This document shows, piece after piece, positions 14,297 to 63,348 of a DNA stretch of 64,000 bases (its first letter is position 1; every line of letters starts with the position of its first letter). This DNA is from Pyrinomonadaceae bacterium (GTDB taxonomy: Bacteria > Acidobacteriota > Blastocatellia > Pyrinomonadales > Pyrinomonadaceae). Location: assembly GCA_036386415.1 (NCBI GenBank), contig DASVVT010000088.1, positions 1 to 64,000 on the forward strand, given 5' to 3'. Both the position numbers and the translations under genes were made by a program. Below the pieces are notes generated by a model. It made no database searches. It was given only the letters and a program-made list of their open reading frames with translations, and was not told the origin of the DNA.

Positions 14297-14310
14297 ACCC
14301 CCACTTTTAA

Positions 14311-14347: not shown

Positions 14348-14388
14348 TCTGACCGCTTCTTTTGGTGACGCTTTCTTAATTGTTGTGC

Positions 14389-15295: not shown

Positions 15296-15300
15296 AAGAC

Positions 15301-26337: not shown

Positions 26338-26442
26338 GTCGGTTAAATCAGTAAACTGCCGGGAGAGCTAAAAATGACAGAAGCTATGTTACCCGAAAGC
26401 CCATTTTTTTGCGACTGGTAATTCGAGGAAAGAAGAGAATAA

Positions 26443-26527
26443 ACCGCAAAGGACGCAAAGAATGAAGACGCTAAGGGCGCGAAGAAGAGTTTCCTTTGCG
26501 TCTTCAAGTTTGCGTCCTTTGCGTTTA
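26443..26527. repeat. CGCAAAG-type hairpin element, copy G1
   Basis: CGCAAAGGACGCAAAGAATGAAGACGC … GCGTCTTCAAGTTTGCGTCCTTTGCG. Confidence 0.8.
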
Positions 26528-32246: not shown

Positions 32247-32359
32247 TTTGGCCTTCGACGCCCTGTGCGATGGCTTTCCAACGTGTCCGCACTTCTGCCG
32301 GGGCGTCCGATCCGCTTAGTATTATACGACAGTCCGGCTATTGAAGTTTATCTTTTCTT

Positions 32360-32440
32360 AGCGTCCTTTGCGCCAATCCTTTGCGTTCTTTGCGTTGAGA
32401 GGTTTTTCAACGCACAGAACGCAAAGGAGGAAGACGCTGG
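32360..32440. repeat. CGCAAAG-type hairpin element, copy G2 (degenerate)
   Basis: GCGTCCTTTGCG CCAATCCTTTGCG TTCTTTGCG … CGCACAGAACGCAAAGGAGGAAGACGC. Confidence 0.7.
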
Positions 32441-32661
32441 AGGTGCGCGAAGAATGATCTATTTAATGGACATCGCTTGCGCGCCGGATAACCATCTGAG
32501 CAAACAGGCGGGCAGGAATTCCGCCCAAACACCACGCAAATCGTCCGGGAATTATGGAAAACCGGCTTGCTCAGATCGTGCAGAGCGCGGTAAAGTAGCA
32601 GCCGATTAACAATCCCCGCGCACTCCCTCGGTTTTCAAAAGCTTGCTGGAGGTCACTTCTG

Positions 32662-40162: not shown

Positions 40163-40612
40163 GTGTCTAGCGAAATGGCTGAACTGTTGCGCGCACTCGC
40201 CGCACGGCTGCACAGGTACATAGGTGATCGTCGTCGCGCCCCACGACACGGGGTGCGCCTGGCCGTCACTCTCTGGCTGCCTGACGGCCCGCTCAATTCA
40301 AACGGCGTGCGCCGACGCTCGCCCGTGCTTGAGGGCTTCACACGCGATGTGAGCGCAACCGGGCTGGCGCTCATCCTGCCCGCCATTCGCATCGGCGAAC
40401 ACTACCTGATCGGCGAAGGCCGCAACCTGCGCCTCCGGCTTGAACTTCCGACGGGGGCGATCCAGATGGATGTCACTCCCGTGCGCTACGAGCGTCTTGA
40501 AGAGGAGCAGGCGGAAAAGGGCTACCTCATCGGCGTCCTGATCGCGGAGATGAGCGACGAAGATCGCCAACGCTACAACGAAGGAATGAAAACAGTAGAC
40601 AGTAGCCAGTAG
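40163..40612 (+). CDS. PilZ-domain c-di-GMP-binding protein
   Basis: RRRAPRHGVRL (RxxxR) and DVSATGLAL (DxSxxG) PilZ motifs. The last 5 codons and the TAG stop lie in repeat C. Confidence 0.7.
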   Translation: MSSEMAELLRALAARLHRYIGDRRRAPRHGVRLAVTLWLPDGPLNSNGVRRRSPVLEGFTRDVSATGLALILPAIRIGEHYLIGEGRNLRLRLELPTGAIQMDVTPVRYERLEEEQAEKGYLIGVLIAEMSDEDRQRYNEGMKTVDSSQ

Positions 40613-40740
40613 TCAGTAGCCAGTAGAAAAGAAAATCGGTTGATGCGGTTGATACGGCTCATCTAACTTCATAGTAGGCAGCAAAGCTTGATGCCCTGCT
40701 TTCGTTTCTACTGGCTACTGACTACTGGCTACTGTCTACT
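40594..40740. repeat. AGTAGTC-heptamer hairpin element, copy C (perfect 33-bp stem)
   Basis: AGTAGACAGTAGCCAGTAGTCAGTAGCCAGTAG / exact reverse complement at 40707-40740. Loop AAAAGAAAATCGGTTGATGCGGTTGATACGGCTCATCT…. Confidence 0.95.
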
Positions 40741-41393: not shown

Positions 41394-41535
41394 AGTAGAC
41401 AGTAGTCGGTAGACAGCAGACAGTAGAAAAGAAAATCTGTTGACGCGGTTGATGCTGCTCATCTCAATCATCGTAGGCAACGTAGTAGATACTCTGTTTT
41501 ATCTACTGCCTACTGACTACTGACTACTGTCTACT
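41394..41535. repeat. AGTAGTC-heptamer hairpin element, copy D
   Basis: Arms AGTAGACAGTAGTCGGTAGACAGCAGACAGTAG / CTACTGCCTACTGACTACTGACTACTGTCTACT (imperfect). Loop AAAAGAAAATCTGTTGACGCGGTTGATGCTGCTCATCT…. Confidence 0.9.
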
Positions 41536-42086: not shown

Positions 42087-42145
42087 ATGAAAAGCAGGAG
42101 ACAGAATACAGAATACAGGAGACAGAATAAAACCGTAGGGGCCAT

Positions 42146-42241
42146 TTAAACGCAGAGGACGCAAAGGTATTTCGCAAAGGAGGCCAAAGAGTAAATCCTC
42201 TGCGTACTCTGCGTAGAACCTTTGCGCCCTCTGCGTTTAAA
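42146..42241. repeat. CGCAAAG-type hairpin element, copy G3
   Basis: TTTAAACGCAGAGGACGCAAAGGTATTTCGCAAAGG … CCTCTGCGTACTCTGCGTAGAACCTTTGCGCCCTCTGCGTTTAAA. The TAA stop of the MFS gene lies in the terminal TTTAAA. Confidence 0.85.
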
Positions 42242-43607
42242 TTGCGCTCGTCTGAGGCGTTTCCTCTGTTTCCTCTGCATCACGCGCGTCGTTCCACCAC
42301 CGCTCCGTGGTGAACCAGAGCGCGCCGGGCACTAGAAAAAGAAGGCCGATGCCGACGGTCACGGTACGCGGCGAGAACTGGAAGCGGTCGAGCAGCTCGC
42401 CCGTCACGTAATTCGAGGCGGCCATCGTCAGCGTGAACAGTGCCAGCTCGGCGGCAAAGACGCGCCCGCGAAAGTTGTCTTCGACCACGCGTTGCAGCAG
42501 CACCGTCGAGAAGACCCAGAGGATGCTGCCGCCCATGTGAGCGACGAGCAGCACCAGGAGTGCCACCATGAAGTTCGTCGCCCGACCGAAAGCGATGTAG
42601 AAGATACCGCCCATGATGAATGCGCCGCCGATAGCGCGTTGCATGTCCCAGCGCATTTCACCACTAAAGCGCCGGGCAGCGAGCGGCCCGATGGCCGTGC
42701 CGATTCCGCGCGCCGCGTAGAGCACGCCGATTCCGGTCGCGGTGCTGCCGCCGACGGGAAAAATCTTTTCGCCGAAGACGGCCAGCAGAGCGAGTATGCC
42801 GCCGCCCAATCCCCAGGCCGGTTTGACCAGCATCAGGGCGAGCACGCGCGGGCGCTTTAACACGTAGCGCATACCATCCAACGTATCCGTGATCCCGAGC
42901 GCATGCTTGATGGTCAGCCTACGCTTAACGCGCGGCTCTCGTCCGGGGAAGCGCACCCTGGCGATGAGGGCTGCCGAAGCGAGATAGGTCAGCGAATCGA
43001 GCACGAAGGCTGCGTCCGTGCCGAACCAACCCGTGACCACGCCGCCAATTGCTGCGCCCAGCGTGAGCATGACAGACCAGGTGACAGACGAGATGGCGTT
43101 TGCCGCGACCAGCTCGCGCGGCGCGACGAGAGACGGAATGGCAGCCGTTTTCGCCGGTTCGAAGAAGGTCGAAAAGACCAGTTGCAGAACCGTCAGCGCG
43201 TAGACGAGCCACATCTGGTCAGGACGGCGCACCAGCAGAAACCCGAGCACGACTATGGCGCGCAAGAGGTCTGACACGATCATGATCGAGCGACGGCTGA
43301 AGCGATCCGCAACGACGCCAGAGAGCGGTCCCAAAATGAAGCTCGGCACAAAGCGCGCCACAAGGACGAGGCCGACGGCGCGACCCGACCCCGTCAGGTT
43401 CAGGACAATCGTGTAGAGGGCGATGGTGTCGAACCAGTCACCCATCTGGCTGACGACCTGGCCTAGCCAGAGCTGCCGGAAATTGCGGTTCGTGCGAAGC
43501 AGCTCGAGATAGCCGACCGCTCGCCTTTCACCTGCGCTCAACGTCTCACCTTCCGCTTTCAATATTGAAAGAGGGTGCACCCTTGAGAAAACGGTTGTCA
43601 ACCGCAC
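42237..43607 (-). CDS. MFS transporter
   Basis: 12-TM pattern with MFS signature loops (…GPLSGVVADRFSRR…). Confidence 0.8.
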   Translation of the reverse strand: MRLTTVFSRVHPLSILKAEGETLSAGERRAVGYLELLRTNRNFRQLWLGQVVSQMGDWFDTIALYTIVLNLTGSGRAVGLVLVARFVPSFILGPLSGVVADRFSRRSIMIVSDLLRAIVVLGFLLVRRPDQMWLVYALTVLQLVFSTFFEPAKTAAIPSLVAPRELVAANAISSVTWSVMLTLGAAIGGVVTGWFGTDAAFVLDSLTYLASAALIARVRFPGREPRVKRRLTIKHALGITDTLDGMRYVLKRPRVLALMLVKPAWGLGGGILALLAVFGEKIFPVGGSTATGIGVLYAARGIGTAIGPLAARRFSGEMRWDMQRAIGGAFIMGGIFYIAFGRATNFMVALLVLLVAHMGGSILWVFSTVLLQRVVEDNFRGRVFAAELALFTLTMAASNYVTGELLDRFQFSPRTVTVGIGLLFLVPGALWFTTERWWNDARDAEETEETPQTSAI

Positions 43608-43612: not shown

Positions 43613-43715
43613 TTTAAACGCAAAGGACGCAAAGGCTCTTCGCAAAGGGCGCAGAGAAAGAAGAACCTCTTTGCGCGCCTCCAGCGTCTTCCTCCTTCGC
43701 GTCCTTTGCGTTTAA
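43613..43715. repeat. CGCAAAG-type hairpin element, copy G4
   Basis: TTTAAACGCAAAGGACGCAAAGGCTCTTCGCAAAGGGCGCAGAG … CCTCTTTGCGCGCC…TTCGCGTCCTTTGCGTTTAAA. Confidence 0.85.
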
Positions 43716-44287
43716 ATCCTTCCTCACCAGAACGGTTTCAAAAGGTTTCAGTCACAGCGTTGACCGAAATTATCAATCTGACCTATCAGATTGACGAACA
43801 ACTTCGTCCTGCGGCCTCACGTCGGAGAGCGATCTGCTTGCGATAAGCGCAGTGCCTTGCAGCATTTAGCTCATCCCGGTCGTCTCTCGCAAACTCGCGG
43901 CACATGGTTTGTTAAGTATCAGTGCGCGGCTCGAAGCGCCCTTAAAAAAGCGCTTCCCGAACTCTCCGCACGGAGTTCGGCTGAGGGCCGCGCCAAATTT
44001 GAAAAGCTGTAGCGTCCCCGTAACTTTTCCGGCGCTCTCATGGCCGGATCAATGACGCTCAAATGGACCCACTCACCCCCAGACAGGCGGGAACATGCGT
44101 TACCACAGCCCGCCGCTTGCCCCGTCCTATGCCGGAAGCGAGAGCTGAGTTGCTCCCAGCAATCGCTTCCGGCGATGGACTTTTTTGACAAATACCACGC
44201 GATCAGGCGTCCCGTGTGGCCGCGAGTGTGAATGGTTAAGCATAGAGAGAACGCACAGAGGGCGAAGTTCATCATCCGGACTGGAGA

Positions 44288-46804
44288 GTGCGAGTGAAAT
44301 TCATAGAGATGTTTGATTACAATCGCGCGGCGCGGGCTTACTGGTCGGCGATGGTTATCGCCGGTGCGCTCGTCGGCGCATGGGGTGTGTCTCAAGCTCT
44401 CTCTTTCACATCCGTGCAGTGGGCGCAGTTTCTTGCGCTCTTGAGCCTCGTCGTCGTCACCGCTTCACACCCGATTCGCATCCCGAACACGAAAGCGAGC
44501 GTCACGGCAGGCGACACGTTCACTTTTCTGAGCGTCCTGCTGTTGGGCGTGCCCTCAGGCATCCTGCTCGGCATCGTCGATTCCTTCGTCAGCTCGCACC
44601 GGACGACGCGGCGTGCGACGAGCTGGCTGGCCGCGCCCGCGATGATGGCGCTGACGGTGCTCGTTGCGGGCAACGCTTTTTACCTGACCCTCGCCGCGAC
44701 GGCGCACAGCACGGACTCTCCGCTTCGCACCTCGGACGTGCATCTGGATGACCTGATCGTGCCGCTGGCCGTGATGACGCTCCTACAGTATTTCCTGAAC
44801 GGTATGACTGTCGCCACCCTGTGCGCTTTGAAGGGGCGGCGCTCGATCTGGAAGTTCTGGCGCGACGGCTACCTCTGGACATCCTGGACATTTTTTGGGG
44901 CGGCGATTGCAGCCGCCTTGATCTACTCAGCCATTTCGAGATTTGGTTTCGTCTACGTGCTGCTGAGTGCGCCCATCATCGCTGCGACCTACGCGACCTA
45001 TCGCATCTACTTCGAGCGGATGAACGAGAAGACGCGCGAGGCGAAAGAGTTGAGCCGCCTGCACCTGGCGACGGTCGAAGCGCTGGCGACCGCCATTGAC
45101 GCCAAGGATCAGACGACCCATTGCCATGTCCGTCGCGTGCAAATCTACGCCGCCGGGATGGGCAGAGTCTTTGGCCTCTCCGACAGCGAGATCGAGGCGC
45201 TCAAGGCGGGCGCGCTCCTGCACGACATCGGCAAGCTGGCCGTGCCCGATCACATTCTGAACAAGCCAGGCCGCCTCTCCGCTGCCGAGTTCGAGAAGAT
45301 GAAGGTGCACACCACGGTCGGCGCCGAGATTCTCAGGCGCGTCAACTTCCCTTATCCGGTCGTGCCCGTCGTGCGCCATCATCACGAGCAATGGGACGGG
45401 CAGGGCTATCCGGACGGACTGCGTGGCGAAGAGATTCCGATCACGGCGCGCATCCTCTCGGTCGTCGATTGCTTCGACTCCGTGCGCGAAGATCGCCCTT
45501 ACCGTCGCGGCATGACGACGGAGGAGGCGAGCGCGCTGCTGCTCAGAGGCGCTGGAAAACATTTCGACCCCAAGGTCGTCGAGCAGTTTTTCAAGCACCT
45601 GCCGCGTTTTGAATCTGAGATTGCGGCGCTCGGCCTAGACCGGCACGGCCTGACGGATGAGGAGTGTGAGCCGCGCGCGCTGACCGAGGCTGAAGTCGCG
45701 CAAGGGAGAGACGAAGCATCGACGGTCGCTTATCTAGACCAGATCAAGAATGCGCATCGTGAAGTCTACGCGCTCTACGAGATTGCGCGCACCTTCGGCT
45801 CATCCTTAGACATACAGGATACGGTCACGATTCTCGTCAACAAGGTCAGGCACATCGTCCCCTTCGATACCTGCGTCGTTTACCTCTATGACGAATTGAA
45901 AGGCTATGCGACCGCCGCGCACGTGGCCGGAAAGAACGCCGAGGCCTTGCGGGATCGCTGCATCGCGCCCGGCGAAGGCGTCACTGGTTTCGCGCTCGCC
46001 AATCGCCGCGCCATTAACCGGATCGACCCCAGCCTTGACTTCACGGGCGTTGAGCTTGCGCCCGGCAACCCTTATCGCTCGATGGCGGCGCTCCCCCTCG
46101 TCAAAGATGAACGACTGCTCGGCACGCTCTCCATCTATTCGATGGAGATGAATGATTACACGGACGACCACATGCGTCTCCTGGACACTGTGGCGCGGCT
46201 CGCTTCGGATGCGCTCGCCAACGCCGTCCAGCACGCGCAGGCCGAGTCACACGCCCTCACAGACCCGCTCACGGGACTTCCCAACGCTCGCTGCATGTAC
46301 ATGCGCTTCGAGCAGGAGGCGTCACGCGCGCGCCGCTCGGGTCGCCCCTTCCAGGTCATCATGCTCGATCTGGACGACTTCAAGCAGGTCAACGATACCT
46401 TCGGCCACAAGGTCGGCGATCAGATGCTGCGCGAAGTGGCGCGCCTGCTCCACTCGCAGCTACGCGAGTACGACTTCCTCGCGCGTTATGCGGGCGACGA
46501 GTTCGTCGCCATCGTGCAGGAAGTCATCGGCGAGCAGGTCGAAGAACTGCGCGAGCGTATCGAAGAGACCATCTCGAAGTTCACGCTTCGCGTCCGCGCA
46601 GAGCACCACGCGCGCGTCGGCATCAGCGTCGGAGCCGCGACCTACGGCACGGACGGCGAAACCCTCGACCAGCTCCTGATCGCCGCCGACGAAGCCATGT
46701 ACAGCGCCAAGTCCGTGCACAAACAGCGACGCCTAGAAGCGGAGACAAAGGTCGAATCCCCCGTCGACATCTCGGATAATCTCGCCTCTACAGCGATAAA
46801 TTAA
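44288..46804 (+). CDS. Membrane-anchored c-di-GMP signalling protein: multi-TM sensor domain, HD-GYP phosphodiesterase, GAF domain, GGDEF domain (AGDEF variant)
   Basis: HD-GYP motifs LLHDIGK, HHEQWDGQGYPDGL. GAF region (LYEIARTFGSSLD…). GGDEF domain with RYAGDEFVAIV. Confidence 0.85.
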   Translation: MRVKFIEMFDYNRAARAYWSAMVIAGALVGAWGVSQALSFTSVQWAQFLALLSLVVVTASHPIRIPNTKASVTAGDTFTFLSVLLLGVPSGILLGIVDSFVSSHRTTRRATSWLAAPAMMALTVLVAGNAFYLTLAATAHSTDSPLRTSDVHLDDLIVPLAVMTLLQYFLNGMTVATLCALKGRRSIWKFWRDGYLWTSWTFFGAAIAAALIYSAISRFGFVYVLLSAPIIAATYATYRIYFERMNEKTREAKELSRLHLATVEALATAIDAKDQTTHCHVRRVQIYAAGMGRVFGLSDSEIEALKAGALLHDIGKLAVPDHILNKPGRLSAAEFEKMKVHTTVGAEILRRVNFPYPVVPVVRHHHEQWDGQGYPDGLRGEEIPITARILSVVDCFDSVREDRPYRRGMTTEEASALLLRGAGKHFDPKVVEQFFKHLPRFESEIAALGLDRHGLTDEECEPRALTEAEVAQGRDEASTVAYLDQIKNAHREVYALYEIARTFGSSLDIQDTVTILVNKVRHIVPFDTCVVYLYDELKGYATAAHVAGKNAEALRDRCIAPGEGVTGFALANRRAINRIDPSLDFTGVELAPGNPYRSMAALPLVKDERLLGTLSIYSMEMNDYTDDHMRLLDTVARLASDALANAVQHAQAESHALTDPLTGLPNARCMYMRFEQEASRARRSGRPFQVIMLDLDDFKQVNDTFGHKVGDQMLREVARLLHSQLREYDFLARYAGDEFVAIVQEVIGEQVEELRERIEETISKFTLRVRAEHHARVGISVGAATYGTDGETLDQLLIAADEAMYSAKSVHKQRRLEAETKVESPVDISDNLASTAIN

Positions 46805-46851
46805 CGTGAGTTCGACATAAGCGGCACAGCCGCTTATGTCGAACTCACGTT
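46803..46851. repeat. Minimal copy of the AACGTGAGTTCGAC-TIR element (23-bp perfect stem, 4-nt loop) overlapping the stop codon of the HD-GYP gene
   Basis: AACGTGAGTTCGACATAAGCGGC ACAG GCCGCTTATGTCGAACTCACGTT. The gene's TAA stop is at 46802-46804. Confidence 0.85.
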
Positions 46852-47019
46852 AAATTAAGGGGCGCTTAAGGCTCAGGCAGAAGAAGCAATCCTGTTTTTG
46901 CTTCCTGCTGCCTCCTGCTTTTTGCCCTCTGCCTTCTGTTATATTATGGGCTGGGAGCGTTTTCCCCCCGGCGATGGTCGAAGAGGCCGCCGGAGCGCTT
47001 TCTGGAATCGCTTGCTGCC

Positions 47020-49074: not shown

Positions 49075-50496
49075 TTGAGCGACATGCAAGCGACACGACT
49101 CCTCGTTGCCGAAGACGAAGCCAATCTGCGCCTCGTGATTCAAAAGGAATTGCAGCGCCTGGGATTTCGTGTGGATGTTGTGCCGGACGGCGAGGCCGCC
49201 TTGCGCCGCCTCGAAGAGGGCAATGTCGATGTCCTCTTAAGCGACATCAACATGCCGCGCATTGACGGGATGGAGCTGCTCAAACGCGTGAGAGAGCGTC
49301 CCAACCCGCCCGAAGTGATCTTGCTCACAGGCCACGCCACGGTCGAGACCGCTATTGAAGCGATGAAGCTCGGCGCGTATGACTATCTGACCAAGCCGTA
49401 TCACATCACGGAGCTGGACGCGCTCGTCAAACAGGCTGCGGAAAAGCGTCGGCTGCGCGTTGACAACCAGCGCCTGCGTCAGCAACTGGCTCGCCAGTCG
49501 GAGATGCCGGAGATCGTCTCCGTCTCCGACCTCATGCGCGAGGCGCTACGCCTTGTCGAGCGCGTCGCGCCTTCGGACGCCTCCGTCTTAATCACGGGCG
49601 AATCCGGAACCGGCAAGGAGCTGATCGCGCACGCCATTCACAGACTCTCGACTCGCGCCGATGCATCCTTCATTGATCTCAACTGCGCCGCGTTTCAGGA
49701 GTCGCTTCTCGAATCAGAGCTTTTCGGTTACGAGGCGGGCGCATTCTCCGGCGCGAAGGGTCGCAAGCTCGGACTGATAGAACTGGCCGACGGCGGCACG
49801 CTCTTTCTGGACGAAGTGACGGAGCTGCCCACGCAGCTTCAATCGAAGCTGCTGCGCGCCATTGAGACGCGCACCTTCTACCGTGTCGGCGGCGTGCGCA
49901 AAGTCGAAGTCGATGTCCGCATCGTCGCGGCCACGAATCGCAATCTCGATCAGGTGGTCACGGATGGAACGTTCCGCTCCGACCTGCTCTATCGCATCAA
50001 CGGATTCCAGATAGACCTCTCGCCCCTGCGCGAAAGACCCGAAGACATAGAACCCCTGGCGCGCCATCTGCTCAAGCAGCTTTGTGGCGCGAATACTCCC
50101 GACCTGACACCCGAAGCGCTCGAAGCCCTGCGCGCCTATAGCTGGCCTGGCAACGTGCGCCAGTTGCGCAACTGCCTTGAGCGCGCCGTGCTGCTGGCAA
50201 ACGACTCGCTCATCACCCTTAACGAGCTACCGCCGGAGGTCGCGCGCCAGGCGGGCGCACCGCTGCCGATCATGACCGCTATGTCGGGCAGCACGGCGGA
50301 AGCGGGCAGCACCAGCGCACAAAGTTCTTCCGGCTCCGCTTCGCCCGCATCGCTGCGCGAAGTCGAGCGCCAGCAGATTCTCGCCGCGCTCGAACAAACG
50401 GGCTGGCATCGCGGCAAGACAGCCGAAATCCTCGGCATCTCGCCCTCCACGCTCTATCGCCGCCTGCGTGACTATAATCTTGAGCGTCGTAATTAA
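49075..50496 (+). CDS. Sigma-54-dependent response regulator (NtrC family: REC, AAA+ sigma-54 activator, Fis-type HTH)
   Basis: Walker A GESGTGKE, GAFSGA motif, ESELFGYEAGAF, C-terminal HTH (…KTAEILGISPSTLYRRL). Confidence 0.9.
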   Translation: MSDMQATRLLVAEDEANLRLVIQKELQRLGFRVDVVPDGEAALRRLEEGNVDVLLSDINMPRIDGMELLKRVRERPNPPEVILLTGHATVETAIEAMKLGAYDYLTKPYHITELDALVKQAAEKRRLRVDNQRLRQQLARQSEMPEIVSVSDLMREALRLVERVAPSDASVLITGESGTGKELIAHAIHRLSTRADASFIDLNCAAFQESLLESELFGYEAGAFSGAKGRKLGLIELADGGTLFLDEVTELPTQLQSKLLRAIETRTFYRVGGVRKVEVDVRIVAATNRNLDQVVTDGTFRSDLLYRINGFQIDLSPLRERPEDIEPLARHLLKQLCGANTPDLTPEALEALRAYSWPGNVRQLRNCLERAVLLANDSLITLNELPPEVARQAGAPLPIMTAMSGSTAEAGSTSAQSSSGSASPASLREVERQQILAALEQTGWHRGKTAEILGISPSTLYRRLRDYNLERRN

Positions 50497-50580
50497 ACGC
50501 AAAGTACGCAAAGGAAAGGCGCGCAAAGGTCGCAAAGAATCAACCCCTTTGCGATAACCTTTGCGTCCTTTGCGTTTAAA
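50493..50580. repeat. CGCAAAG-type hairpin element, copy G5
   Basis: TTAAACGCAAAGTACGCAAAGGAAAGGCGCGCAAAGGTCGCAAAG … CCCCTTTGCGATAACCTTTGCGTCCTTTGCGTTTAAA. The TAA stop of the regulator lies in the terminal TTAAAC. Confidence 0.85.
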
Positions 50581-53563: not shown

Positions 53564-54673
53564 GTGACATTTCTTTCTCTCCAAAACATCTCGAAGCGAT
53601 ACGACGCGACCGTGGCCGTCGCCGATCTTTCGCTCGCCATCGAGCGGGGCGAGTTCTTCGGGCTGCTCGGCCCGTCCGGGTGCGGCAAGACGACTACGCT
53701 GCGTATGATCGCAGGCCTGGAGACGCCGGACAGAGGGGTCATACAGTTCGATGGTCGGGACATCACGCGGCTCTCGCCCGAGCGGCGCGGCTTCGGCATG
53801 GTCTTTCAAAACTACGCGCTCTTCCCTCACCTAGACGTCTTTGAGAACGTCGCCTTCGGCCTGCGCGCGCGCCGTCGCCCGAAGGCGGAGATCACGGAGC
53901 GCGTCAAGAGCGCCCTCCAACTGGTGCAGCTTCCAGGCTACGAGCGGCGTCGCACGGGCGAGCTTTCGGGCGGCCAGCAACAGAGAGTCGCCATCGCGCG
54001 CGCCATCAGTATTGAGCCTGCGCTCCTGCTCTTTGACGAGCCACTCTCGAACCTGGACGTAGCCCTGCGCGAAGAGACGCGCGGCGAATTGCGCGAGCTG
54101 GTGGCACGCCTGAACCTGACCGCCGTTTACGTCACGCACGACCAGGAGGAAGCCTTCGCGCTCTGCGACCGCATCTGCGTGATGAGCGAAGGCCGCAGCC
54201 TGCAAACAGGAACGCCGCGCGAGCTTTACGAACGTCCCGCAGAGGCGCTGGTCGCACGCTTTCTCGGACGCAACAATCTCATCAAAGCCATGCGCCTGAG
54301 CGCCAGCCACGTCCGCAGCGCAACCTTCAAGACCCTCGAAGGCGGCCACACGCTCAACGTCTTCGTCCGGAAGGAGGATTTAAGCCCTCTCAACTCCGCC
54401 GCGACGCTCGCCATACGCCCGGAGTATCTACGTCTCAGTAAGACAGAAATAGTGGAAGATAACACTCTCCAAGCGACCGTTCGTGAGATCAACTTCACGG
54501 GCGCAACGACAAGCATCAAGCTGGACGCGGGCGGTCTCGCCCTCGAAGCCCTCGTCATTCAGGCGGACGGCCTCTCCGTCGGCGACGCCTGCATGGTCAT
54601 GCTGCCCCCTCAACACATCACGATCTTAGGGATGAACAAAGGGATGAGGGATGAACGAAGGGATGAGGGATGA
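53564..54673 (+). CDS. ABC transporter ATP-binding protein (FbpC/PotA family with C-terminal TOBE domain)
   Basis: Walker A GPSGCGKTT, Q-loop, signature LSGGQQQRVAIARA, Walker B LLLFDEPLS, H-loop. Confidence 0.9.
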   Translation: MTFLSLQNISKRYDATVAVADLSLAIERGEFFGLLGPSGCGKTTTLRMIAGLETPDRGVIQFDGRDITRLSPERRGFGMVFQNYALFPHLDVFENVAFGLRARRRPKAEITERVKSALQLVQLPGYERRRTGELSGGQQQRVAIARAISIEPALLLFDEPLSNLDVALREETRGELRELVARLNLTAVYVTHDQEEAFALCDRICVMSEGRSLQTGTPRELYERPAEALVARFLGRNNLIKAMRLSASHVRSATFKTLEGGHTLNVFVRKEDLSPLNSAATLAIRPEYLRLSKTEIVEDNTLQATVREINFTGATTSIKLDAGGLALEALVIQADGLSVGDACMVMLPPQHITILGMNKGMRDERRDEG

Positions 54674-54850
54674 GGGATGAGGGATGAAGAAAAGAAAGCA
54701 GCAGGCGGCAAGCAGAGCGCAGTAAGCGGAAAGCGTGAGAGCGTAAGCAACAAAAATCCAACCTCTGCTGGCTTTAGCTTTTTGTCTTCATTCATCCCTC
54801 ATCCCTCATCCCTCATCCCTTCGCAAGTCCCTCATCCCTCATCCCTCATC
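54629..54850. repeat. Hairpin built from AGGGATG heptamers (>=8 units per arm) at the junction of the two ABC transporter genes
   Basis: AGGGATGAACAAAGGGATGAGGGATGAACGAAGGGATGAGGGATGAGGGATGAGGGATGAAG -98-nt loop- CTTCATTCATCCCTCATCCCTCATCCCTTCGCAAGTCCCTCATCCCTCATCCCTCATCCTTTCG. Confidence 0.9.
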
Positions 54851-56506
54851 CTTTCGTTTGTTGTCTTCCTCGTTCTCCTTTACGGCGTCGTCTATCCGAA
54901 TCTTCATGTGCTCGTCGCTTCGCTCTTGCGCGACGGCGCATGGTCTGTGGGTAATTACGTAGAGGCGCTCTCTAGCCGCACGGTGCAGGAATCAATCGCG
55001 TCGAGCATCGGCCTGTCGCTGCTGACGGTTCTGTTGTGCGCGCTGGTCGGTGTGCCGCTGGCTTTCCTCTTCGAGCGCTATGCGTTTCCGGCGCGGCGGC
55101 TCTTTGCGACGCTCGCGACGCTCCCGCTCGTGCTTCCGCCCCTGGTCGGCACGGTCGCCTTCATCTTCCTGTGCGGCGAGTCTGGCATTCTGGCGCGCGC
55201 CGTCCAGTGGGCGTTTGATTTAAGGAGCGCGCCGTGGTCTTTGCGCGGGTGGACGGCGCTTTTGATCTTTCACACCTACACGATGTACCCGTTCTTTTAC
55301 GTCCTGACAGGAGCCGGACTCAGGCTGACGGACGCAGGGCTCAGCGAAGCCGCGCGCAGTCTCGGCGCACAGCCCTTCACAGTTCTGCGTCGCGTCGTGC
55401 TGCCGCAACTGACGCCTTCTCTCATCGCCGCCGCGCTCCTGACCTTTATGACTTCAATGGCATCGTTTAGCGCGCCGCTTCTGTTCGGGGGCGGCGTGCG
55501 CGTGCTGACGCTTGAAATCTACAACGCGCGACAGCGCGGCGACGGGGCGGTGGCGCTCACGGAGACCGTCATCCTGGCGATAATCTCGCTTTGCGCGCTC
55601 CTCTTCTTTCAGCGCTACGAGGGGACGCGCCGGTTCGTCGCGGCGGCCATGAAGGGCACTGCGCGCCGCCGCTCGCCCATTAAGAGCGGGACGACGCGCG
55701 CCGTAGCCGTCATCTGCGGCTCCGTTTTCAGCATCGCCCTGGCGCTGCCGGTCGCCACGCTCGTGCTCGTCAGTTTCGCACGCGAAGGAGGCTGGACGAC
55801 GCAAGCCCTGCCTCCCTCATACACGCTCGATAACTACGCGCGTCTGCTCACCGAAGGCGGGACGGGCGAGGTGATTATCAACAGCCTGTTGATGTCCGGC
55901 ATCGCGGCTCTCGCGGCGCTCTGCTGGAGTTTCTGCGCAGCATCTCTGGTGGCGGGTGGTAAAAGATCAAGCGGCGTGAGATCAAGATGGCGGCGCGTGG
56001 TCTCGCTGCTCGTGCTCGTCCCCTGGGCTTTGCCGGGCACGGTCGTCGCTATCAGCATCAGTGAAGCTTACGGCGAGACGAACCCGCTCACGGGCTCCTT
56101 CATTCTCGTCGGCACGTTCTGGATTCTACCCGTCATCTACTTTCTGCGTTTTATGCCGCTCGTGGTGCGCGCCGTGCAGGCCAGCATGGAGCAGATAGAC
56201 CCTGCGCTGGAAGAAGCGGCGGGGAGCCTCGGCGCGCATTGGTGGCAGCGCTTCTGGCGTGTGCGGCTGCCGCTCATCTGGCACGGCGCGCTCGCAGGCG
56301 CGCTGCTGGCGTTCGTCATCGCGCTCGGCGAATACGTCGCCAGCGTGCTCGTCTTCGTCCCTTCAAACCGCCCCATCTCAATCGCCATCGCGAGCGAGAT
56401 GCGCGACTTTCGACTGGGCACTGCCGCCGCCTACGGCGTGATACTCATCTTCATCATCGCCGCCAGCATGGCAATCGCCGCAAGGCTGGAAAAAAGGAGA
56501 CGGTAA
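54677..56506 (+). CDS. ABC transporter permease with duplicated transmembrane domains (FbpB/ThiP-like); start codon uncertain
   Basis: Two EAA-loop-containing permease halves. The first ~55 codons of the listed ORF are encoded by the AGGGATG hairpin, so the true start is probably downstream (~54850+). Confidence 0.8.
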   Translation: MRDEEKKAAGGKQSAVSGKRESVSNKNPTSAGFSFLSSFIPHPSSLIPSQVPHPSSLILSFVVFLVLLYGVVYPNLHVLVASLLRDGAWSVGNYVEALSSRTVQESIASSIGLSLLTVLLCALVGVPLAFLFERYAFPARRLFATLATLPLVLPPLVGTVAFIFLCGESGILARAVQWAFDLRSAPWSLRGWTALLIFHTYTMYPFFYVLTGAGLRLTDAGLSEAARSLGAQPFTVLRRVVLPQLTPSLIAAALLTFMTSMASFSAPLLFGGGVRVLTLEIYNARQRGDGAVALTETVILAIISLCALLFFQRYEGTRRFVAAAMKGTARRRSPIKSGTTRAVAVICGSVFSIALALPVATLVLVSFAREGGWTTQALPPSYTLDNYARLLTEGGTGEVIINSLLMSGIAALAALCWSFCAASLVAGGKRSSGVRSRWRRVVSLLVLVPWALPGTVVAISISEAYGETNPLTGSFILVGTFWILPVIYFLRFMPLVVRAVQASMEQIDPALEEAAGSLGAHWWQRFWRVRLPLIWHGALAGALLAFVIALGEYVASVLVFVPSNRPISIAIASEMRDFRLGTAAAYGVILIFIIAASMAIAARLEKRRR

Positions 56507-56636
56507 GTCAGTAGACAGTAGTCAGTAGTCAGTAGCCAGTAGAAAAGCGTTCGCTAGCGAGCGCGTCATGGTGACGGCGTCAGTACCCGCAGCGCGGAGC
56601 GCCTACTGACTACTGACTACTGTCTACTGTCTACTG
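56507..56636. repeat. AGTAGTC-heptamer hairpin element, copy E
   Basis: GTCAGTAGACAGTAGTCAGTAGTCAGTAGCCAGTAG / CTACTGACTACTGACTACTGTCTACTGTCTACTG. Loop diverged but shares GCGCGGAGCGCCTACTGAC with copy B. Confidence 0.9.
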
Positions 56637-57136: not shown

Positions 57137-59781
57137 TTATCAATCAAAGATCACAGAACAAGCATCTGCACCACGCGGTGCGCGCTTTCCTCGCGTTCTC
57201 TCTCGCGGCGCTGCTGGCCGTCTCCTGGCTCGACGATGTCGCGCCGCGATCCCTGGCAGCCAGCACGTCGAAAGAGGATGCGGCGCTCTATCAGGCGCTG
57301 CTTGACCTGACCAATCCCTGGACGGTGATGTGCGTCGCCGCGCACCCGGACGACGAGGACGGCGCGACGCTGACCCTGCTCCGGCGCAAATACGGCGTGC
57401 ATACCGTGACGCTCTTTTCCACTTACGGCGAAGGCGGCCAGAACGCCGTCGGGCCGGAGTTGTACGAAGAGTTGGGCGCGATGCGCGCGCGTGAGACGCT
57501 GGAAGCGGCGGAGATTCAAGGCTCTGAAGCCTACTTTCTGGGGCTGCGTGATTTCGGCTTCTCGAAGTCCGCTGAGGAGGCTTTTCGCGTCTGGGGTCAC
57601 GAAGAGGCGCTCAAACGCATGGTCTTACAGATTCGGCGGCTGCGCCCGGACGTGATCATCACCAACCACGACACAGGAAGCGGCCACGGCCATCACCAGG
57701 CGACCGGACGGCTCGTGCTGGAAGCTTTCGATATGGCTGCCGACCCCGCACGATTCCCCGAACAACTGCGCGCCGGTCTGAGCGTCTGGCAGCCGCAGAG
57801 GCTTTTCGTACGCACCTTCTCTGAAAGCGGAGCTGGCGACAAAAAGGGCGCAGATGAAGCCCGTGGTCTGATTTCCATAGATGTCAACGAGCGCGACGCG
57901 GCGTGGGGATCGACGTACGCGCAGCAGGCTTTGCGCGCTCTGCAACGCCATGCCACGCAGGGCCCCTGGCCGCCAACGATTCCCGCAGGCGGACGCCCGC
58001 TCATTCGCTATCGCCTCGCGCGCACAGCGAAAGAGGCCGCGCCGTTGCCCGGCAATGCATCTTCATTCCTCGATGGTCTGACTCTGCCCGAATCCGTTGC
58101 AGGAAAACTCAGGCTATCGGCAGCGAGGACTTTCCTGGCGCTTTACGCCGATGCGGGAGGAGAAGGCGAACGCGTGCTCGGCGCGCTCATCGCTGCACGA
58201 AAAGAACGCGGACTCTTTGCACTGACCACAAACGATGACCCGCGCTTCCTCTTGATGTCCGCGCGCTTCGACCGCGCGCTGGCTGTGGCGAGCGGCGTCT
58301 CAGTAAACTTCGAGCCGCGCCGCGAGCCTTTGATACCCGGCGTGCACGCCGCTTTCAACATCAACATAGAAAATCGAGGCACTCTGCCCGTCACCGTCAA
58401 GAGCCTGTCTTTCAGCGGAGGCGGGCAAGGCGCGACGCCTCTGCTCAAGGAGCCCGTAGAGGTTGCGCCAGGCAAAACGTTTGTCGCCAAGGCCGAGTAT
58501 ACCGGCGCGAAGGCTTTAACGATCAACGTACCCCACGCGGCGCATCTTTACGATGGACGCGTCTTCGGCGAGCAGTTCAGCGCAGAAGCGTTAGTCAATC
58601 TGGGCGGCACGAGCTTTCCCGTCGTCTCGAAAACAATGGTCGATGTCGCGCCCGCCGTGGAGATCAAAAGCATCACGCCGTCGCCCATCGTCCTGACGCC
58701 GACAACTATCAATAAGCCCGTGCCTTTTACGCTCCGTCTTGTCAATCACCAGCGCGCGGAGTTCAGAGGAAGGGTCAAACTCGGCGGCCTGATAAATACA
58801 ACGCGCTCTGATCTACGGTTCACGATTGGAGCCAATGAGACGCTCGATTTTAAGAACCAGTTGAGCTTTCCCGCAGACCGCAATCGGCCAGGTCACGCCA
58901 ACAAGCCTGTCCCGGATGTGTTGGCGTTCGCAATCATCCCAGAGGGCAGGCAGAAACCGCTCACGCAGCAGACAGTCCGGGTCGCATACAGCGACGCGCG
59001 CGTTGCGGCTGGACTTCGCGTCGGCTACGTGCGCAGTTTCGACGACACATTGCGCGATGCCCTGGCTGCGCTCGGCGTCGAAGCGAAAGAGTTAACGGTC
59101 GATGATATTCGCGTCGGCGATTTAAAGCCGTATGACACGATCATCATCGACAATCGCGGTTATCAGGCGCACACGGAACTGATCGCCGCCAACCCGCGCC
59201 TGCTTGAGTACGTGAGCGCAGGGGGCACGCTGATCGTTTTCTATCACAAGCCGAATGAGTGGAATCCAGACCCCTCGAAGGGGCGCACGCAGCTTGCGCC
59301 CTACACGATCATGGCAGGCAACGAGCGCGTCACGGACGAGAACGCAGGCGTAGCCTTCGTCGAGCCCGCGCACGCGCTGCTCAACTTTCCGAACAAGATC
59401 ACGGCGGACGATTTCAGAGGCTGGATTCAAGAGCGCGGCCTCTATTATCCGGATCAATGGGATGAGCATTACAGCGCTCCGCTCGCCTCAAGCGATGCGG
59501 GCGAGAAGCCTTTGCGGGGCGGCTTGCTGGCCGCTGATTATGGGCGCGGGCGCTACATCTACACGAGCATGGTCTGGTACAGACAACTGCGCGCCGGCAT
59601 CCCCGGTGCTTATCGTATGTTCGCCAACATGCTCAGCTATGGGCGTATGCGGAATGCTGATTTCGGATTGCGGATTGAAAGATTTGTGATCTCAAATCTC
59701 AGACTTCAGATTCGAGATTCCAGGAGCGCCAATCCGCATTCCGCATTCCGAAATCCGCATTCCGTTTGGGGTTTTGAATGA
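57118..59781 (+). CDS. Secreted PIG-L/LmbE-family N-acetylglucosaminyl deacetylase with a large C-terminal extension (ThuA/class-I-glutamine-amidotransferase-like domain)
   Basis: AAHPDDEDGA and HDTGSGHGHH metal-binding motifs of the PIG-L family. Signal peptide. The last ~44 codons are encoded by hairpin element 59648-59764. Confidence 0.75.
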   Translation: MCRVRMIINQRSQNKHLHHAVRAFLAFSLAALLAVSWLDDVAPRSLAASTSKEDAALYQALLDLTNPWTVMCVAAHPDDEDGATLTLLRRKYGVHTVTLFSTYGEGGQNAVGPELYEELGAMRARETLEAAEIQGSEAYFLGLRDFGFSKSAEEAFRVWGHEEALKRMVLQIRRLRPDVIITNHDTGSGHGHHQATGRLVLEAFDMAADPARFPEQLRAGLSVWQPQRLFVRTFSESGAGDKKGADEARGLISIDVNERDAAWGSTYAQQALRALQRHATQGPWPPTIPAGGRPLIRYRLARTAKEAAPLPGNASSFLDGLTLPESVAGKLRLSAARTFLALYADAGGEGERVLGALIAARKERGLFALTTNDDPRFLLMSARFDRALAVASGVSVNFEPRREPLIPGVHAAFNINIENRGTLPVTVKSLSFSGGGQGATPLLKEPVEVAPGKTFVAKAEYTGAKALTINVPHAAHLYDGRVFGEQFSAEALVNLGGTSFPVVSKTMVDVAPAVEIKSITPSPIVLTPTTINKPVPFTLRLVNHQRAEFRGRVKLGGLINTTRSDLRFTIGANETLDFKNQLSFPADRNRPGHANKPVPDVLAFAIIPEGRQKPLTQQTVRVAYSDARVAAGLRVGYVRSFDDTLRDALAALGVEAKELTVDDIRVGDLKPYDTIIIDNRGYQAHTELIAANPRLLEYVSAGGTLIVFYHKPNEWNPDPSKGRTQLAPYTIMAGNERVTDENAGVAFVEPAHALLNFPNKITADDFRGWIQERGLYYPDQWDEHYSAPLASSDAGEKPLRGGLLAADYGRGRYIYTSMVWYRQLRAGIPGAYRMFANMLSYGRMRNADFGLRIERFVISNLRLQIRDSRSANPHSAFRNPHSVWGFE
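59648..59764. repeat. ATTGCGG-heptamer hairpin element, copy 2
   Basis: Arms GCGGAATGCTGATTTCGGATTGCGGATTG / CAATCCGCATTCCGCATTCCGAAATCCGCATTCCG. Loop AAGATTTGTGATCTCAAATCTCAGACTTCAGATTCGAGATTCCAGG is conserved with copy 1 (reverse orientation). Confidence 0.85.
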
Positions 59782-61481: not shown

Positions 61482-61575
61482 TGCAAAGGTCGCCAAGGAA
61501 ACCGCAGAGGGCGCTGGAGATTCCTTTTGCGCCCTCTGCGTCTTCATCCTTTGCGTCCTTTGCGGTGGCATGGCT
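61482..61575. repeat. CGCAAAG-type hairpin element, copy G6
   Basis: CTGCAAAGGTCGCCAAGGAAACCGCAGAGGGCGC … GCGCCCTCTGCGTCTTCATCCTTTGCGTCCTTTGCGG. Confidence 0.8.
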
Positions 61576-61659: not shown

Positions 61660-62496
61660 ATGACGATTCATGAATCAGACAGACCGCTCGTTGCGCTCAC
61701 CATCGCCGGATTCGACCCTTCCGGCGGCGCGGGCATCATCGCGGACGTTAAAACTTTCACGGCCTTTGGCTGCTTTGCGACGGCCGCCGTCACCTCGCTG
61801 ACTTTCCAGAACACGACTGGCGTTTTTGGCGCGGTACACCAGACAGCGGCAGATGTGCGCGCGCAGGTGATGCCGGTCGTTGAGGATTTCAGGGTCGCGT
61901 GTGTCAAGACCGGTATGCTGCCGACGCGTGAGGTGATTGCGGAGGTCGCGCGGCTGCTCGGCGAGACTGAGATGCCCGCACCGGTGGTCGATCCGGTTGT
62001 CCGCTCGACCTCCGGCTATGATCTGGTAGACGATGCGGCGCTCAAGGCATTGACCGAAGAGCTCTTACCACTGGCGCGCGTCCTGACGCCGAACATTCCG
62101 GAGGCAGAGCGTATCACGGGTCTTCGCATTACAGATGAAGAAGGGATGAAACAGGCCGCGCGCGTCATGCGAGAGATGGGAGCGCGCGCCGTGCTCGTCA
62201 AAGGCGGACACCTGAAAGCGCAGCGGGCAACAGGCAAGCCGTTGGCTGTAGATATACTTGATGATGGCGGGCGGATCACAGTCTTTCGTGAAGAGATGAT
62301 CGAAACAACCGCCACTCACGGGACGGGCTGCACGCTGGCCGCTGCTATAGCGGCCTGCCTCGGTCGCGGCTTGAGCCTGGAGGAAGCCACAGCGACCGCC
62401 AAACGCTTCGTCACAGACGCCATACGCCGCGCCTCGCATCTAGGCCACGGCCACAGCCCCATCGAACAGTCGAGAGTCTGGGGTCATGAGTCATGA
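61660..62496 (+). CDS. thiD: Hydroxymethylpyrimidine/phosphomethylpyrimidine kinase
   Basis: LTIAGFDPSGGAGIIADVKTF…, VKTGML, GTGCTLAAAIAA motifs of ThiD. Confidence 0.9.
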   Translation: MTIHESDRPLVALTIAGFDPSGGAGIIADVKTFTAFGCFATAAVTSLTFQNTTGVFGAVHQTAADVRAQVMPVVEDFRVACVKTGMLPTREVIAEVARLLGETEMPAPVVDPVVRSTSGYDLVDDAALKALTEELLPLARVLTPNIPEAERITGLRITDEEGMKQAARVMREMGARAVLVKGGHLKAQRATGKPLAVDILDDGGRITVFREEMIETTATHGTGCTLAAAIAACLGRGLSLEEATATAKRFVTDAIRRASHLGHGHSPIEQSRVWGHES

Positions 62497-62532
62497 GTCA
62501 AAAGCTAAACGGTAGAGTCCTGCTGTGATTAG

Positions 62533-62640
62533 TGCTCTGTGCCGCCTCTCTCGTCCTGCGGTGTCTGCGGTGGTGAGTGGTTCTGAAAGTTGATTCACCA
62601 CCGCAGACACCGCAGAACGCGGAGGATGCACAGAGAAGAG
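62533..62640. repeat. ~105-nt structured hairpin repeat, copy 2 (perfect 21-bp inner stem), between convergent thiD and ppiB
   Basis: CTGCGGTGTCTGCGGTGGTGA (62557-62577) / TCACCACCGCAGACACCGCAG (62596-62616). Outer arms GTGCTCTGTGCCGCCTCTC / GCGGAGGATGCACAGAG. Confidence 0.85.
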
Positions 62641-62705
62641 ATGGAACCAGGAGACTACTAGCTAAACAGTCTTTATCTTCTGATTTCTGACTCCAGACTC
62701 TAAAC

Positions 62706-63212: not shown

Positions 63213-63348
63213 AGTAGTCAGTAGTCAGTAGTCAGTAATCAGTAGAAAGAAAGACCGCCTTTGCTGTCAACTTTGATTTAGATGCTCAATACGAGAACGC
63301 GTCAACCGCTTTTCTTTCCTACTGGCTACTGACTACTGACTACTGTCT
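63213..63348. repeat. AGTAGTC-heptamer hairpin element, copy F (loop module in reverse orientation)
   Basis: AGTAGTCAGTAGTCAGTAGTCAGTAATCAGTAG / CTACTGGCTACTGACTACTGACTACTGTCT. The minus strand of the loop carries GAAAGAAAAGCGGTTGACGCG…GAGCATCT. Confidence 0.9.

Follow-up and report, generated by a model that had tools for sequence, protein, structure and literature searches.

Introduction

Short tandem heptamer repeats and inverted pairs of such repeats have been catalogued in bacteria since 1990; to our knowledge they have no accepted origin or function, and we know of no role for the GxxExxY proteins. We analyzed a family of long intergenic hairpins, termed G elements, in a 64,000-nt stretch of a Pyrinomonadaceae bacterium (GenBank assembly GCA_036386415.1, contig DASVVT010000088.1, positions 1 to 64,000; the whole stretch is called the window below). 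Six of these hairpins, G1 to G6, with arms built from CGCAAAG/CGCAGAG units, lie between genes of the window, and in other genomes arms of the same type flank genes encoding GxxExxY proteins. We regard it as rather probable that the G elements are relatives of this cassette that have no open reading frame (ORF).

The closest described system to the cassettes is the intervening sequence (IVS) found in the 23S rRNA of Coxiella, Leptospira, Salmonella and others (PMC4990558). In Coxiella, where it was called a selfish element, its 28-bp terminal inverted-repeat stem is cut by RNase III, and an AG-rich Shine-Dalgarno region together with GACAGAT heptamers, the number of which varies between strains, stands before a decaying S23p ORF (PMC4990558). 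The full cassettes found in other genomes resemble IVSs by their long inverted-repeat stem, by their small ORF and by the purine-rich repeats that precede its start codon; the window copies do so by the stem only. IVSs are situated in helix 25 or 45 of 23S rRNA and encode S23p, a four-helix bundle, whereas G elements are situated between protein-coding genes, their cargo elsewhere belongs to PF13366 and not to S23p, and the window copies are ORF-less. A host RNA kept functional through RNase III is a feature of IVSs that we propose, by analogy, for the G elements.

Repetitive extragenic palindromic (REP) sequences and the REP-associated tyrosine transposases (RAYTs) provide another comparison. 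REPs, like G elements, are short extragenic imperfect palindromes present in many copies at gene ends and inside operons, and in both cases one protein gene is flanked by the same repeats and gene-less copies are dispersed. REPs have a GTAG foot, consist of a single palindrome of 20-40 nt and are associated with a transposase of the HUH Y1 type, whereas G elements have arms of 7-nt units, no GTAG and a gene for a putative Cas4-like PD-(D/E)XK protein.

Simple sequence repeats (SSRs) and short tandemly repeated repetitive sequences (STRRs) share with the G elements tandem 7-nt intergenic units, often arranged in convergent stem-loop pairs at or overlapping stop codons, as well as a variable copy number and a patchy distribution across phyla. 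Heptamer SSRs and convergent pairs at stop codons were described in Xanthomonas and Nostoc (PMC4692102), TAACTGA repeats in Beggiatoaceae, cyanobacteria and Bacteroidetes (PMC4679880) and repeat motifs within P6b, a stem-loop of the trnL intron of Nostoc (PMC4476775); for long SSRs we refer to Mrazek 2007 as cited in PMC4679880. G elements fall within the long SSR/STRR class (head-to-tail non-coding units of 5-11 nt, slippage) as loose members, given the irregularity of their arms, in which 7-nt units are separated by 1-7 nt; the arms also have defined termini. Published heptamer repeats were treated as SSRs, G-quadruplexes or regulator sites, and no cargo gene for them is named in the searchable literature (PMC4692102, PMC4679880, PMC4476775).

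Results

GxxExxY genes lie between G-type arms in other genomes

A search for G arms set wider apart revealed purine and pyrimidine arrays separated by ~400 nt in L058, L066 and L073, then in L082 and L013 (compared loci carry L numbers). In all five, the arms enclosed an ORF of ~125 aa encoding a GxxExxY protein (TIGR04256, E 1e-41 to 1e-23; PF13366, PDDEXK_3). The purine arm ended 3-25 nt before the start codon of this gene, often providing GGAGG or AAGGA, and the pyrimidine arm followed directly after the stop codon. The termini of L013, from a member of the Parachlamydiaceae, TTTTAACGCAAAG...CTTTGCGTTAAAA, were near those of the window copies.

Sampling was also done from the protein only, on one clade, that of the G-flanked queries themselves, and on eight plasmid genes. 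CGCARAG arrays were present at the ORF ends of 6/6 close homologues (L243-245, L246, L247, L248, L257-260 and L261-266), at 3-25 nt from the start codon and 4-12 nt from the stop codon. The distant homologues, carried by plasmids of isolates and 33-54% identical, were flanked by short-unit arrays or by inverted or direct repeats in 8/8 cases, 4/8 being of the CRCRRAG type. These flanks consisted of a CGCAGAG hairpin in Gemmatirosa, CACAGAG arms in Bacteroides finegoldii and Bernardetia, CGCGAAG in Sphingomonas, an inverted repeat ACACGGATTCG in Treponema, ACAAATC arrays in Prevotella, a 22-nt direct repeat in Fusobacteria and, by eye, TAATCC/TAAATCC-like motifs on either side of the Persicobacter gene. 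Units other than those of the G family, found at the more distant homologues, were CACAGAG, CGCGAAG, ACGGATT and ACAAATC.

The density of arrays was 4.4/kb in the flanks of GxxExxY genes versus 0.75/kb elsewhere, and the arm upstream of the gene was the purine arm at 6 loci and the pyrimidine arm at 0. GxxExxY was the sole cargo of inverted 6-mer arrays of any unit spaced 280-800 nt apart in all loci, and about 280 loci yielded no transposase between G arms. These results show that the arms are specifically associated with GxxExxY genes, which they enclose in many phyla, always with the purine arm ahead of the gene and the pyrimidine arm behind it, and that the family is real and widespread, with a defined architecture and polarity. 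An earlier sequence-only reading of the window had raised the idea of a link between such dispersed palindromes and one dedicated gene, which appears right, the gene found elsewhere being that of the GxxExxY protein, putatively of PD-(D/E)XK type.

The cassettes are co-oriented with the surrounding genes within operons, between fabD and fabG, argH and lysW, brxC and pglX, AAA and DUF2201 genes, and radA and its neighbor. The cassette between brxC and pglX interrupts an operon of the BREX (bacteriophage exclusion) defence system (L248:1-3384); near-identical purine arms of 50 nt flank its ORF, and recombination between these direct repeats would remove the ORF and leave a solo hairpin.

The GxxExxY protein is a predicted nuclease

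Residues D67, E77 and K79 of GxxExxY were invariant in 48 sequences, its AlphaFold2 model had a predicted local distance difference test (pLDDT) score of 94, and the protein is a predicted nuclease with a Cas4-like PD-(D/E)XK fold. No relative was identified by sequence in the PDB, and defence-system libraries (PADLOC) gave weak Cas4-like matches only. The family comprised 36,544 clusters (50% identity) at E <= 0.001 and 16,931 at E <= 1e-10. Almost nothing on GxxExxY was found in the searchable literature; its entry for PF13366 reads 'Unknown... multiple transfers, mixed clades', the transfers being between divisions (PMC3424549). The top-scoring representatives (P0241-P0257) are 240-295 aa long and contain two full domains. 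Such two-domain entries may be adjacent cassettes fused by gene callers or true tandem fusions; arrays of the CGCAAAGGA type are free of stop codons, which would allow callers to fuse adjacent cassettes.

G-type hairpins are widespread and polar

An exact scan for ACGCAAAGGACGCAAAGG in one genome per species recovered at least 117 stretches. Among the matches listed, 45 stretches had units on both strands within 150 nt; 36 were clean hairpins with the purine arm first, 7 were reversed and 3 mixed; and carriers belonged to the Bacteroidota, Gamma- and Betaproteobacteria, Acidobacteriota, Chloroflexota, Desulfobacterota, Verrucomicrobiota and others. In these same matches the palindrome continued beyond the units, with T-rich 5' and A-rich 3' flanks, e.g. 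TTTTTTGTC...GACAAAAAA, and in other lineages the flanks outside the units were inverted complements (T6GTC...GACA6), not direct duplications. The sequence-only reading had made the family depend on copies or conserved structure outside the window; both were found elsewhere, in at least seven phyla. Conserved termini were rejected as a general feature of all matches: when all were compared, the exact 23-mer TTTAAACGCAAAGGACGCAAAGG of G4 recurred in one Bacteroidia metagenome-assembled genome only.

Polarity was strong: tandem-unit hairpins had the purine-rich arm first in 35 cases and the pyrimidine-rich arm first in 5. Counted at the level of units, the A/G position of a unit co-varied with the T/C of its partner (76 A:T, 6 G:C, 7 G:T and 3 A:C; Fisher p 1.6e-4). 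Genomes with G hairpins also carried other unit families, some identical to those of the window (AGGGATG in L112, GTAGTCR in L052, GGATTGCGGATTT in L104), and the repeat style of L050, L100 and L112 was similar to that of the window; together with gene content, this likeness pointed to a probable soil Acidobacteriota of the Pyrinomonadaceae/Blastocatellia type as the source of the window. In L098:3450-3700, L023:5900-6450 and L019:5670-6360, a half-element made of one G arm and 30-200 nt was repeated 3-7 times head-to-tail, an arrangement that the cassette model does not explain.

Viral contigs gave 44 matches, just 3 of them hairpins, and no GxxExxY protein was found in 50,697 phage records; phage vectors for G elements were rejected on these grounds. 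A literature search with the repeat sequence returned primers only.

Full cassettes and ORF-less hairpins share one orthologous site

The junction between the AAA and DUF2201 genes offered an orthologous series. The reference locus, L257, has CGCAAAG/CTTTGCG arms and the ORF. With neighbor genes 91% identical, L269 has CGCAGAG/CTCTGCG arms and the ORF; at 87% identity, L270 has CGCAGAG and CGCGGAG units facing CTCCGCG and CTCTGCG, and the ORF. The arms of L058 are CGCAAAG/CTTTGCG and its ORF is truncated. The ORF is absent from the two other loci: L276 (85%) has a CGCAAAT hairpin with a 190-nt loop and a relic, CTTTGCGgtgaaatatttt, and L277 (79%) a CACAGAG hairpin with a 100-nt loop. Both arms thus change in concert along the series, and the same position is taken by full cassettes and by ORF-less hairpins.

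The copies in the window

All six hairpins were present at the positions given by the sequence-only reading, and all were intergenic. They are imperfect palindromes of 80-105 bp with arms from CGCAAAG/CGCAGAG units. The 17-mer CGCAAAGGACGCAAAGG occurred 13 times in the window with <=2 mismatches, as opposed to 0.03 expected from shuffles, and arrays of at least two CRCNNAG-type units 24 times (shuffled mean 6.9, shuffled maximum 14). Every copy folded as a single long hairpin with a minimum free energy (MFE) of -40 to -64 kcal/mol and z of -7.2 to -9.8, and none of the shuffled sequences folded as well. The outer two units with the terminus (~23 nt) were conserved among copies and the inner part was degenerate, overall pairwise identity being 64-78%.

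G3 (42146..42241; MFE -61.5/-54.4, z -9.8/-8.5), the copy that had been flagged, consists of TTTAAA and four units, a loop, then four units and TTTAAA, the outer 25 bp pairing perfectly. Its left arm reads TTTAAA-CGCAGAGGA-CGCAAAGGTATTT-CGCAAAGGAGGC-CAAAGAG before the loop and its right arm CTCTGCGTA-CTCTGCGTAGAAC-CTTTGCGCC-CTCTGCG-TTTAAA after it. G4 (43613..43716; MFE -64.3, z -7.9), TTTAAACGCAAAGGACGCAAAGG...CCTTCGCGTCCTTTGCGTTTAAA, has a perfect outer stem of 26 bp, and G5 (50493..50580; MFE -39.9, z -7.3), TTAAACGCAAAGTACGCAAAGG...CCTTTGCGTCCTTTGCGTTTAAA, lies directly 3' of the sigma-54 activator gene. G1 (26440..26527; MFE -45, z -8.8), TAAACCGCAAAGGACGCAAAG...CTTTGCGTCCTTTGCGTTTAG, is placed between the start of ribBA and the stop of a beta-propeller gene, both on the minus strand. 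G6 (61482..61565; MFE -57, z -8.0), CTGCAAAGGTCGCCAAGG...CCTTTGCGTCCTTTGCGG, has no TTTAAA termini and is ~95 nt upstream of thiD. G2 (32356..32452; MFE -55, z -7.2) is a reversed-order copy in a divergent intergenic region, with CCTTTGCG units, then ...GCGTTGAGAGGTTTTTCAACGC..., then CGCAAAGG units.

The termini TT(T)AAACGCA...TGCGTTTAAA reported for G3, G4 and G5 were observed as described. Those of G3 and G5 do provide TAA stops, for the major facilitator superfamily (MFS) transporter gene (42237..42239, minus strand, within the G3 TTTAAA terminus) and for the sigma-54-dependent response regulator (50494..50496, plus strand, within the G5 terminus). The TTTAAA-ended architecture, which had been extended to all six copies, applies to G3-G5 and not to G1 and G6, which have no exact TTTAAA. 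Nor is the order of the arms common to the six, since CCTTTGCG units precede CGCAAAGG units in G2, and the arms are not made of regular 9-mers but of some four 7-nt units each, spaced by 1-7 nt. The family is, as had been noted, distinct from the heptamer hairpins of the window and of the same architecture.

G2 reads as a putative tail-to-head junction in which a right-arm terminus abuts a left-arm terminus. Hairpins of reversed polarity, with the pyrimidine arm first (4299-4408, 62535-62635 and G2 at 32356-32452), carry the usual outer termini centrally (GGTGAA next to TTCACC, or GCGTTGA next to TCAACGC) and resemble junctions at which one element's right end meets the left end of its successor.

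The part of the genome examined comprised the window and the next 9 kb of the contig (73 kb); two further G copies are situated past the window, at window-equivalent positions ~65874-65940 and 71541-71626. A search for strain-level polymorphism found a second assembly of the organism that was 100% identical over 20.5 kb.

The MFS-SLOG spacer and variation between strains

G3 and a one-armed array at 42093-42135 fill the spacer between the stop of the MFS gene and the start of the SLOG gene. The array consists of CAGAATA/CAGGAGA heptamers with no complementary partner and adjoins the true SLOG start on its upstream side. Comparison with relatives indicated that this start is the ATG at 42088-42086, the listed start at 42145 over-extending through the array, and that the start of the MFS ORF is over-called, G4 being outside the MFS coding region. 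On the minus strand, at 43574..43601, a promoter/operator-like element of the MFS gene, TTGACAA-N12-GGTGCACC, has a motif that is also present in L139, L144, L182 and L141. G4 ends 11 nt upstream of this element, which is a boundary and no part of the repeat. About 25 nt upstream of the promoter-like element, at the permissive spot used by G4 in the window, L139 (2137-2334) and L144 (2508-2705) carry a ~190-bp insertion resembling a MITE (miniature inverted-repeat transposable element), with long inverted termini GGCACTTTTTCTCTAGCCCGGGCC... (compare L182:2935-2956).

Eighty loci encoding MFS relatives (67-79% aa identity) with conserved MFS-SLOG synteny were compared. The spacer was 5-40 nt long and had no hairpin in most of the 80. 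A G hairpin was present in L129 and L139, hairpins of reversed polarity in L120 and L123 and hairpins of other kinds in L146, L167 and L173. L139 and L144 have flanks that are 98.6% identical, and ~110 nt in one are replaced by ~160 nt in the other, a change that takes in the hairpin and the last part of the MFS ORF. Identity between G3 and the L139 hairpin (77-78%, versus 64-73% for other pairs) was judged too weak for the two to be called orthologous. Relatives had 3 G-type hairpins in ~430 kb, compared with 6 in the 64-kb window, indicating that the expansion is lineage-specific. Between pairs of related loci 98-99% identical, units were gained by slippage, namely TATCTCG and, on two occasions, GCCGATT.

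The hairpins behave as symmetric DNA palindromes

Sense-strand mismatches in tandem-unit hairpins between co-directional genes were G:U in 14 cases versus A:C in 15; in other hairpins between co-directional genes G:U was the rarer (27 versus 47 A:C). The sense strand folded better than the antisense in 5/11 hairpins. Given no strand bias in G:U or in folding, the elements behave as symmetric DNA palindromes.

G elements were rejected as intrinsic terminators: they have no T tail (UUUAAA at best), stems are 35-45 bp, and a consensus scan flagged none of them. In other lineages the conserved flanks have their T run 5' and their A run 3', the reverse of the order in a terminator. Canonical terminator-like sites in the window numbered 11, with 10.1 expected. 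No Rfam match reached the gathering score in the window, and permissive thresholds gave a single chance match to a microRNA hairpin (E 0.63).

Gene context and other hairpins in the window

The gene content of the window is that of an ordinary chromosome (bamA, tamB, ribBA, a class A penicillin-binding protein, ATP-binding cassette (ABC) transporters, two-component systems and CarboxypepD_reg proteins); it includes neither transposase nor RAYT genes, and the window contains no rRNA. Nearly all intergenic gaps hold a hairpin with tandem 7-9-mer arms, which begins at a gene's stop codon and reaches to within a few bases of the gene that follows. The unit families are CAGTAGN, CAGATGY, GGAWTGCG, AGGGATG, CCGCAGA, GAGTCAT, CACGAAGG and the G family.

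CAGTAGN hairpins, at 6330-6478, 19859-19990, 40594-40740, 41394-41535, 56506-56636 and 63213-63351, reach from a stop codon to a stop or start codon, the TAG of the unit giving stops on both strands. In either orientation they have a common homologous loop of ~60 nt (GAAAAGAAAATCGGTTGAYGCGGTTGATRC.GCTCATCT...GTAGGCA) with TTGAC-type hexamers inside; the shared loop makes them copies of a single element, as opposed to separate products of slippage. The CAGATGY hairpin at 15300-15382 has its core CAGATG in common with the GACAGAT heptamers before the S23p ORF of the Coxiella IVS (PMC4990558), which hints that other hairpin families of the window pair with S23p-type cargo. An AGGGATG hairpin at 54628-54851 (MFE about -132 kcal/mol) separates the ATPase and permease genes of an ABC-transporter operon, and the permease ORF call passes through it; its unit is like the GGGAATC repeat of Xanthomonas and contains GGGATGA (Shine-Dalgarno, ATG and TGA).

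A family of non-tandem palindromes, AACGTGAGTTCGAC(G/A)T(C/A)AGCGGC..., is present at 7794-7965 and 46797-46857, and the copy at 7794 is nested in an outer hairpin of CACGAAGG units (7698-7720 and about 7975-8000). Further nested hairpins are found at 62474-62714, in L104:4005-4171, in L211 and in L013. Hairpins of GGAATGCG units at ~59650-59759 of the window and in L267:3634-3743 are 89% identical over 110 nt, and this family has a conserved interior that includes an inner CTCGAATCTGAAATCTGAGATTT core. A low-GC island at 10604-14400 (45-50% versus ~60%) contains a gene for a fused restriction-methylase of MmeI/Eco57I-like type (11603-14296), probably a horizontally acquired defence gene; ahead of it, at 11267-11384, are AT-rich TATATACAA repeats and palindromes.

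Discussion

A cassette origin for the G elements

We favor, with some reserve, the explanation that G elements are ORF-less relatives of the GxxExxY cassette. The full cassette would comprise a CGCARAG purine arm preceded by T-rich sequence, the GxxExxY gene, and a CTYTGCG pyrimidine arm followed by A-rich sequence. The purine arm may double as the ribosome-binding region of the ORF, which would explain the near-constant purine-first order of the ORF-less hairpins. Loss of the ORF would leave a hairpin, and the near-identical purine arms on either side of the ORF in several cassettes could promote its deletion; the ORF-less elements may be MITE-like shells or decay products, both origins being possible. 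Once transcribed, a perfect stem of at least 25 bp would be a double-stranded substrate for RNase III, as in the IVS of 23S rRNA, and the element could be cut from a polycistronic RNA, or split it, with little harm to the neighboring genes. By analogy with RAYTs and REPs, the GxxExxY nuclease might recognize the units of the arms, or the hairpin once extruded, and drive spread or maintenance in trans.

Several observations weigh against this explanation. Neither a GxxExxY gene nor a recognizable remnant of one was found in the window and the following 9 kb (tblastn E > 0.4), so that the local copies would be non-autonomous or relics, and identities of 64-78% among them speak against a recent burst. 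The loops of L276 and L277 likewise contained no coding remnant (tblastn E > 0.4); derivation by ORF loss is therefore deduced from position and arms, and as the units of these two loci (CGCAAAT, CACAGAG) are unlike those of the neighboring cassettes, their hairpins may have inserted independently where the site is permissive. The difference between L139 and L144 is a segment replacement and not a clean insertion with target duplication. Signs of selection on the hairpins at the RNA level were sought and not seen, there being no strand bias in G:U versus A:C or in folding energy. Finally, the protein-first sample came from the clade of the G-flanked queries.

The main rival to the cassette is an invasion of host hairpins by GxxExxY genes. 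Hairpins at gene boundaries, serving as terminators, protectors of mRNA 3' ends or operon punctuation, would be selected by the host and grow in situ by slippage of 7-9 nt (the long SSR/STRR class), the GxxExxY genes being secondary invaders of their loops. The gaps of the window, nearly all holding a hairpin that abuts stop or start codons, fit this explanation, as do the unit gains between strains 98-99% identical, the different unit families found in the same orthologous spacer, and the inverted GGGAATC pairs of Xanthomonas, likewise at stop codons (PMC4692102); terminator-like sites not being enriched, another end signal may also be needed. It leaves unexplained that seven phyla or more share one unit, one spacing and one kind of termini, that conservation between copies is highest in the outer ~23 nt, in the manner of terminal repeats, and that polarity is 35:5 in favor of purine first. 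The hairpins moreover have no T tail and have reversed flanks, show no strand-specific tolerance of G:U, and are missing altogether from the MFS-SLOG spacer of most close relatives. We hold host-grown hairpins to be a minor possibility next to the cassette. A regulator could also be imagined, the arms being binding-site arrays of a protein that binds RNA or DNA (CsrA-, S1-, Csp- or HutP-like) and the hairpin modulating access to them, as was proposed for the TAACTGA repeats (PMC4679880). The units do contain AAGGA, with a GGA core and likeness to a Shine-Dalgarno sequence, and the repeats adjoin start and stop codons. Yet these motifs are buried in a stem of at least 25 bp, the family is symmetric on both strands, unit sequences differ widely among families of the same architecture, and some copies are outside transcripts, such as G4 upstream of the promoter-like element; such a role seems very unlikely to us.

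Mobilization by known transposases was given equally little credence. The sequence-only reading had suggested a comparison of the elements with REPs and bacterial interspersed mosaic elements (BIMEs), and REP/BIME elements or REPINs could be mobilized in trans by a RAYT (HUH Y1) encoded elsewhere in the genome. G elements are dispersed, extragenic, imperfectly palindromic and about the size of REPINs, and the neighboring CAGTAGN family contains GTAG. The comparison finds no support in the G family itself, which has termini TT(T)AAACGCA... in place of a GTAG foot, a length of 80-105 bp and sub-repeated arms of four units each where a REP is a single palindrome of 20-40 nt; no HUH Y1 or RAYT gene is among the genes of the window, and the gene between identical arms elsewhere is predicted to be PD-(D/E)XK, not HUH. 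An ordinary MITE, derived by deletion from a DDE-transposase insertion sequence and having terminal inverted repeats that happen to be sub-repeated, is similarly improbable. MITEs and G elements alike are non-autonomous, about 100 bp long and polymorphic for presence, with conserved inverted termini and a variable interior, and L139 and L144 do have a true MITE-like insertion of 190 bp upstream of their MFS promoter. A target duplication of TA or TTAA could be concealed in the TTTAAA found at either end; being self-complementary, TTTAAA is uninformative on this point. No target-site duplication or transposase partner was seen, however: outer flanks in other lineages are inverted complements and not direct duplications, the sole comparison of a filled and an unfilled site (L139 versus L144) is a replacement, and in about 280 loci the cargo between G arms is always GxxExxY and never a transposase.

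Significance

More tentatively, and with less confidence than for the G elements themselves, the tandem-heptamer and tandem-nonamer intergenic hairpins of cyanobacteria (STRR), Xanthomonas, Acidobacteriota, Chloroflexota, Bacteroidota and others could be footprints of one large class of IVS-like cassettes encoding GxxExxY and probably S23p, the 7-9 nt unit being the recognition code of the cognate protein. If this were true, it would constitute a second system of the REP/RAYT kind, built on a PD-(D/E)XK nuclease, with a protein clade of its own for each hairpin family of the window. The link of heptamer repeats with GxxExxY offers a testable explanation for both. In the system proposed here, a nuclease gene placed in sub-repeated arms is accompanied by gene-less copies at gene boundaries, in parallel to REP/RAYT and to the IVSs of rRNA. 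For annotation, gene callers over-extend ORFs into the arrays (here those of the MFS, SLOG, permease and BamA genes) and may join neighboring cassettes into one. For the organisms, stems of 25-45 bp at nearly every gene boundary must, we infer, shape the processing of mRNA.

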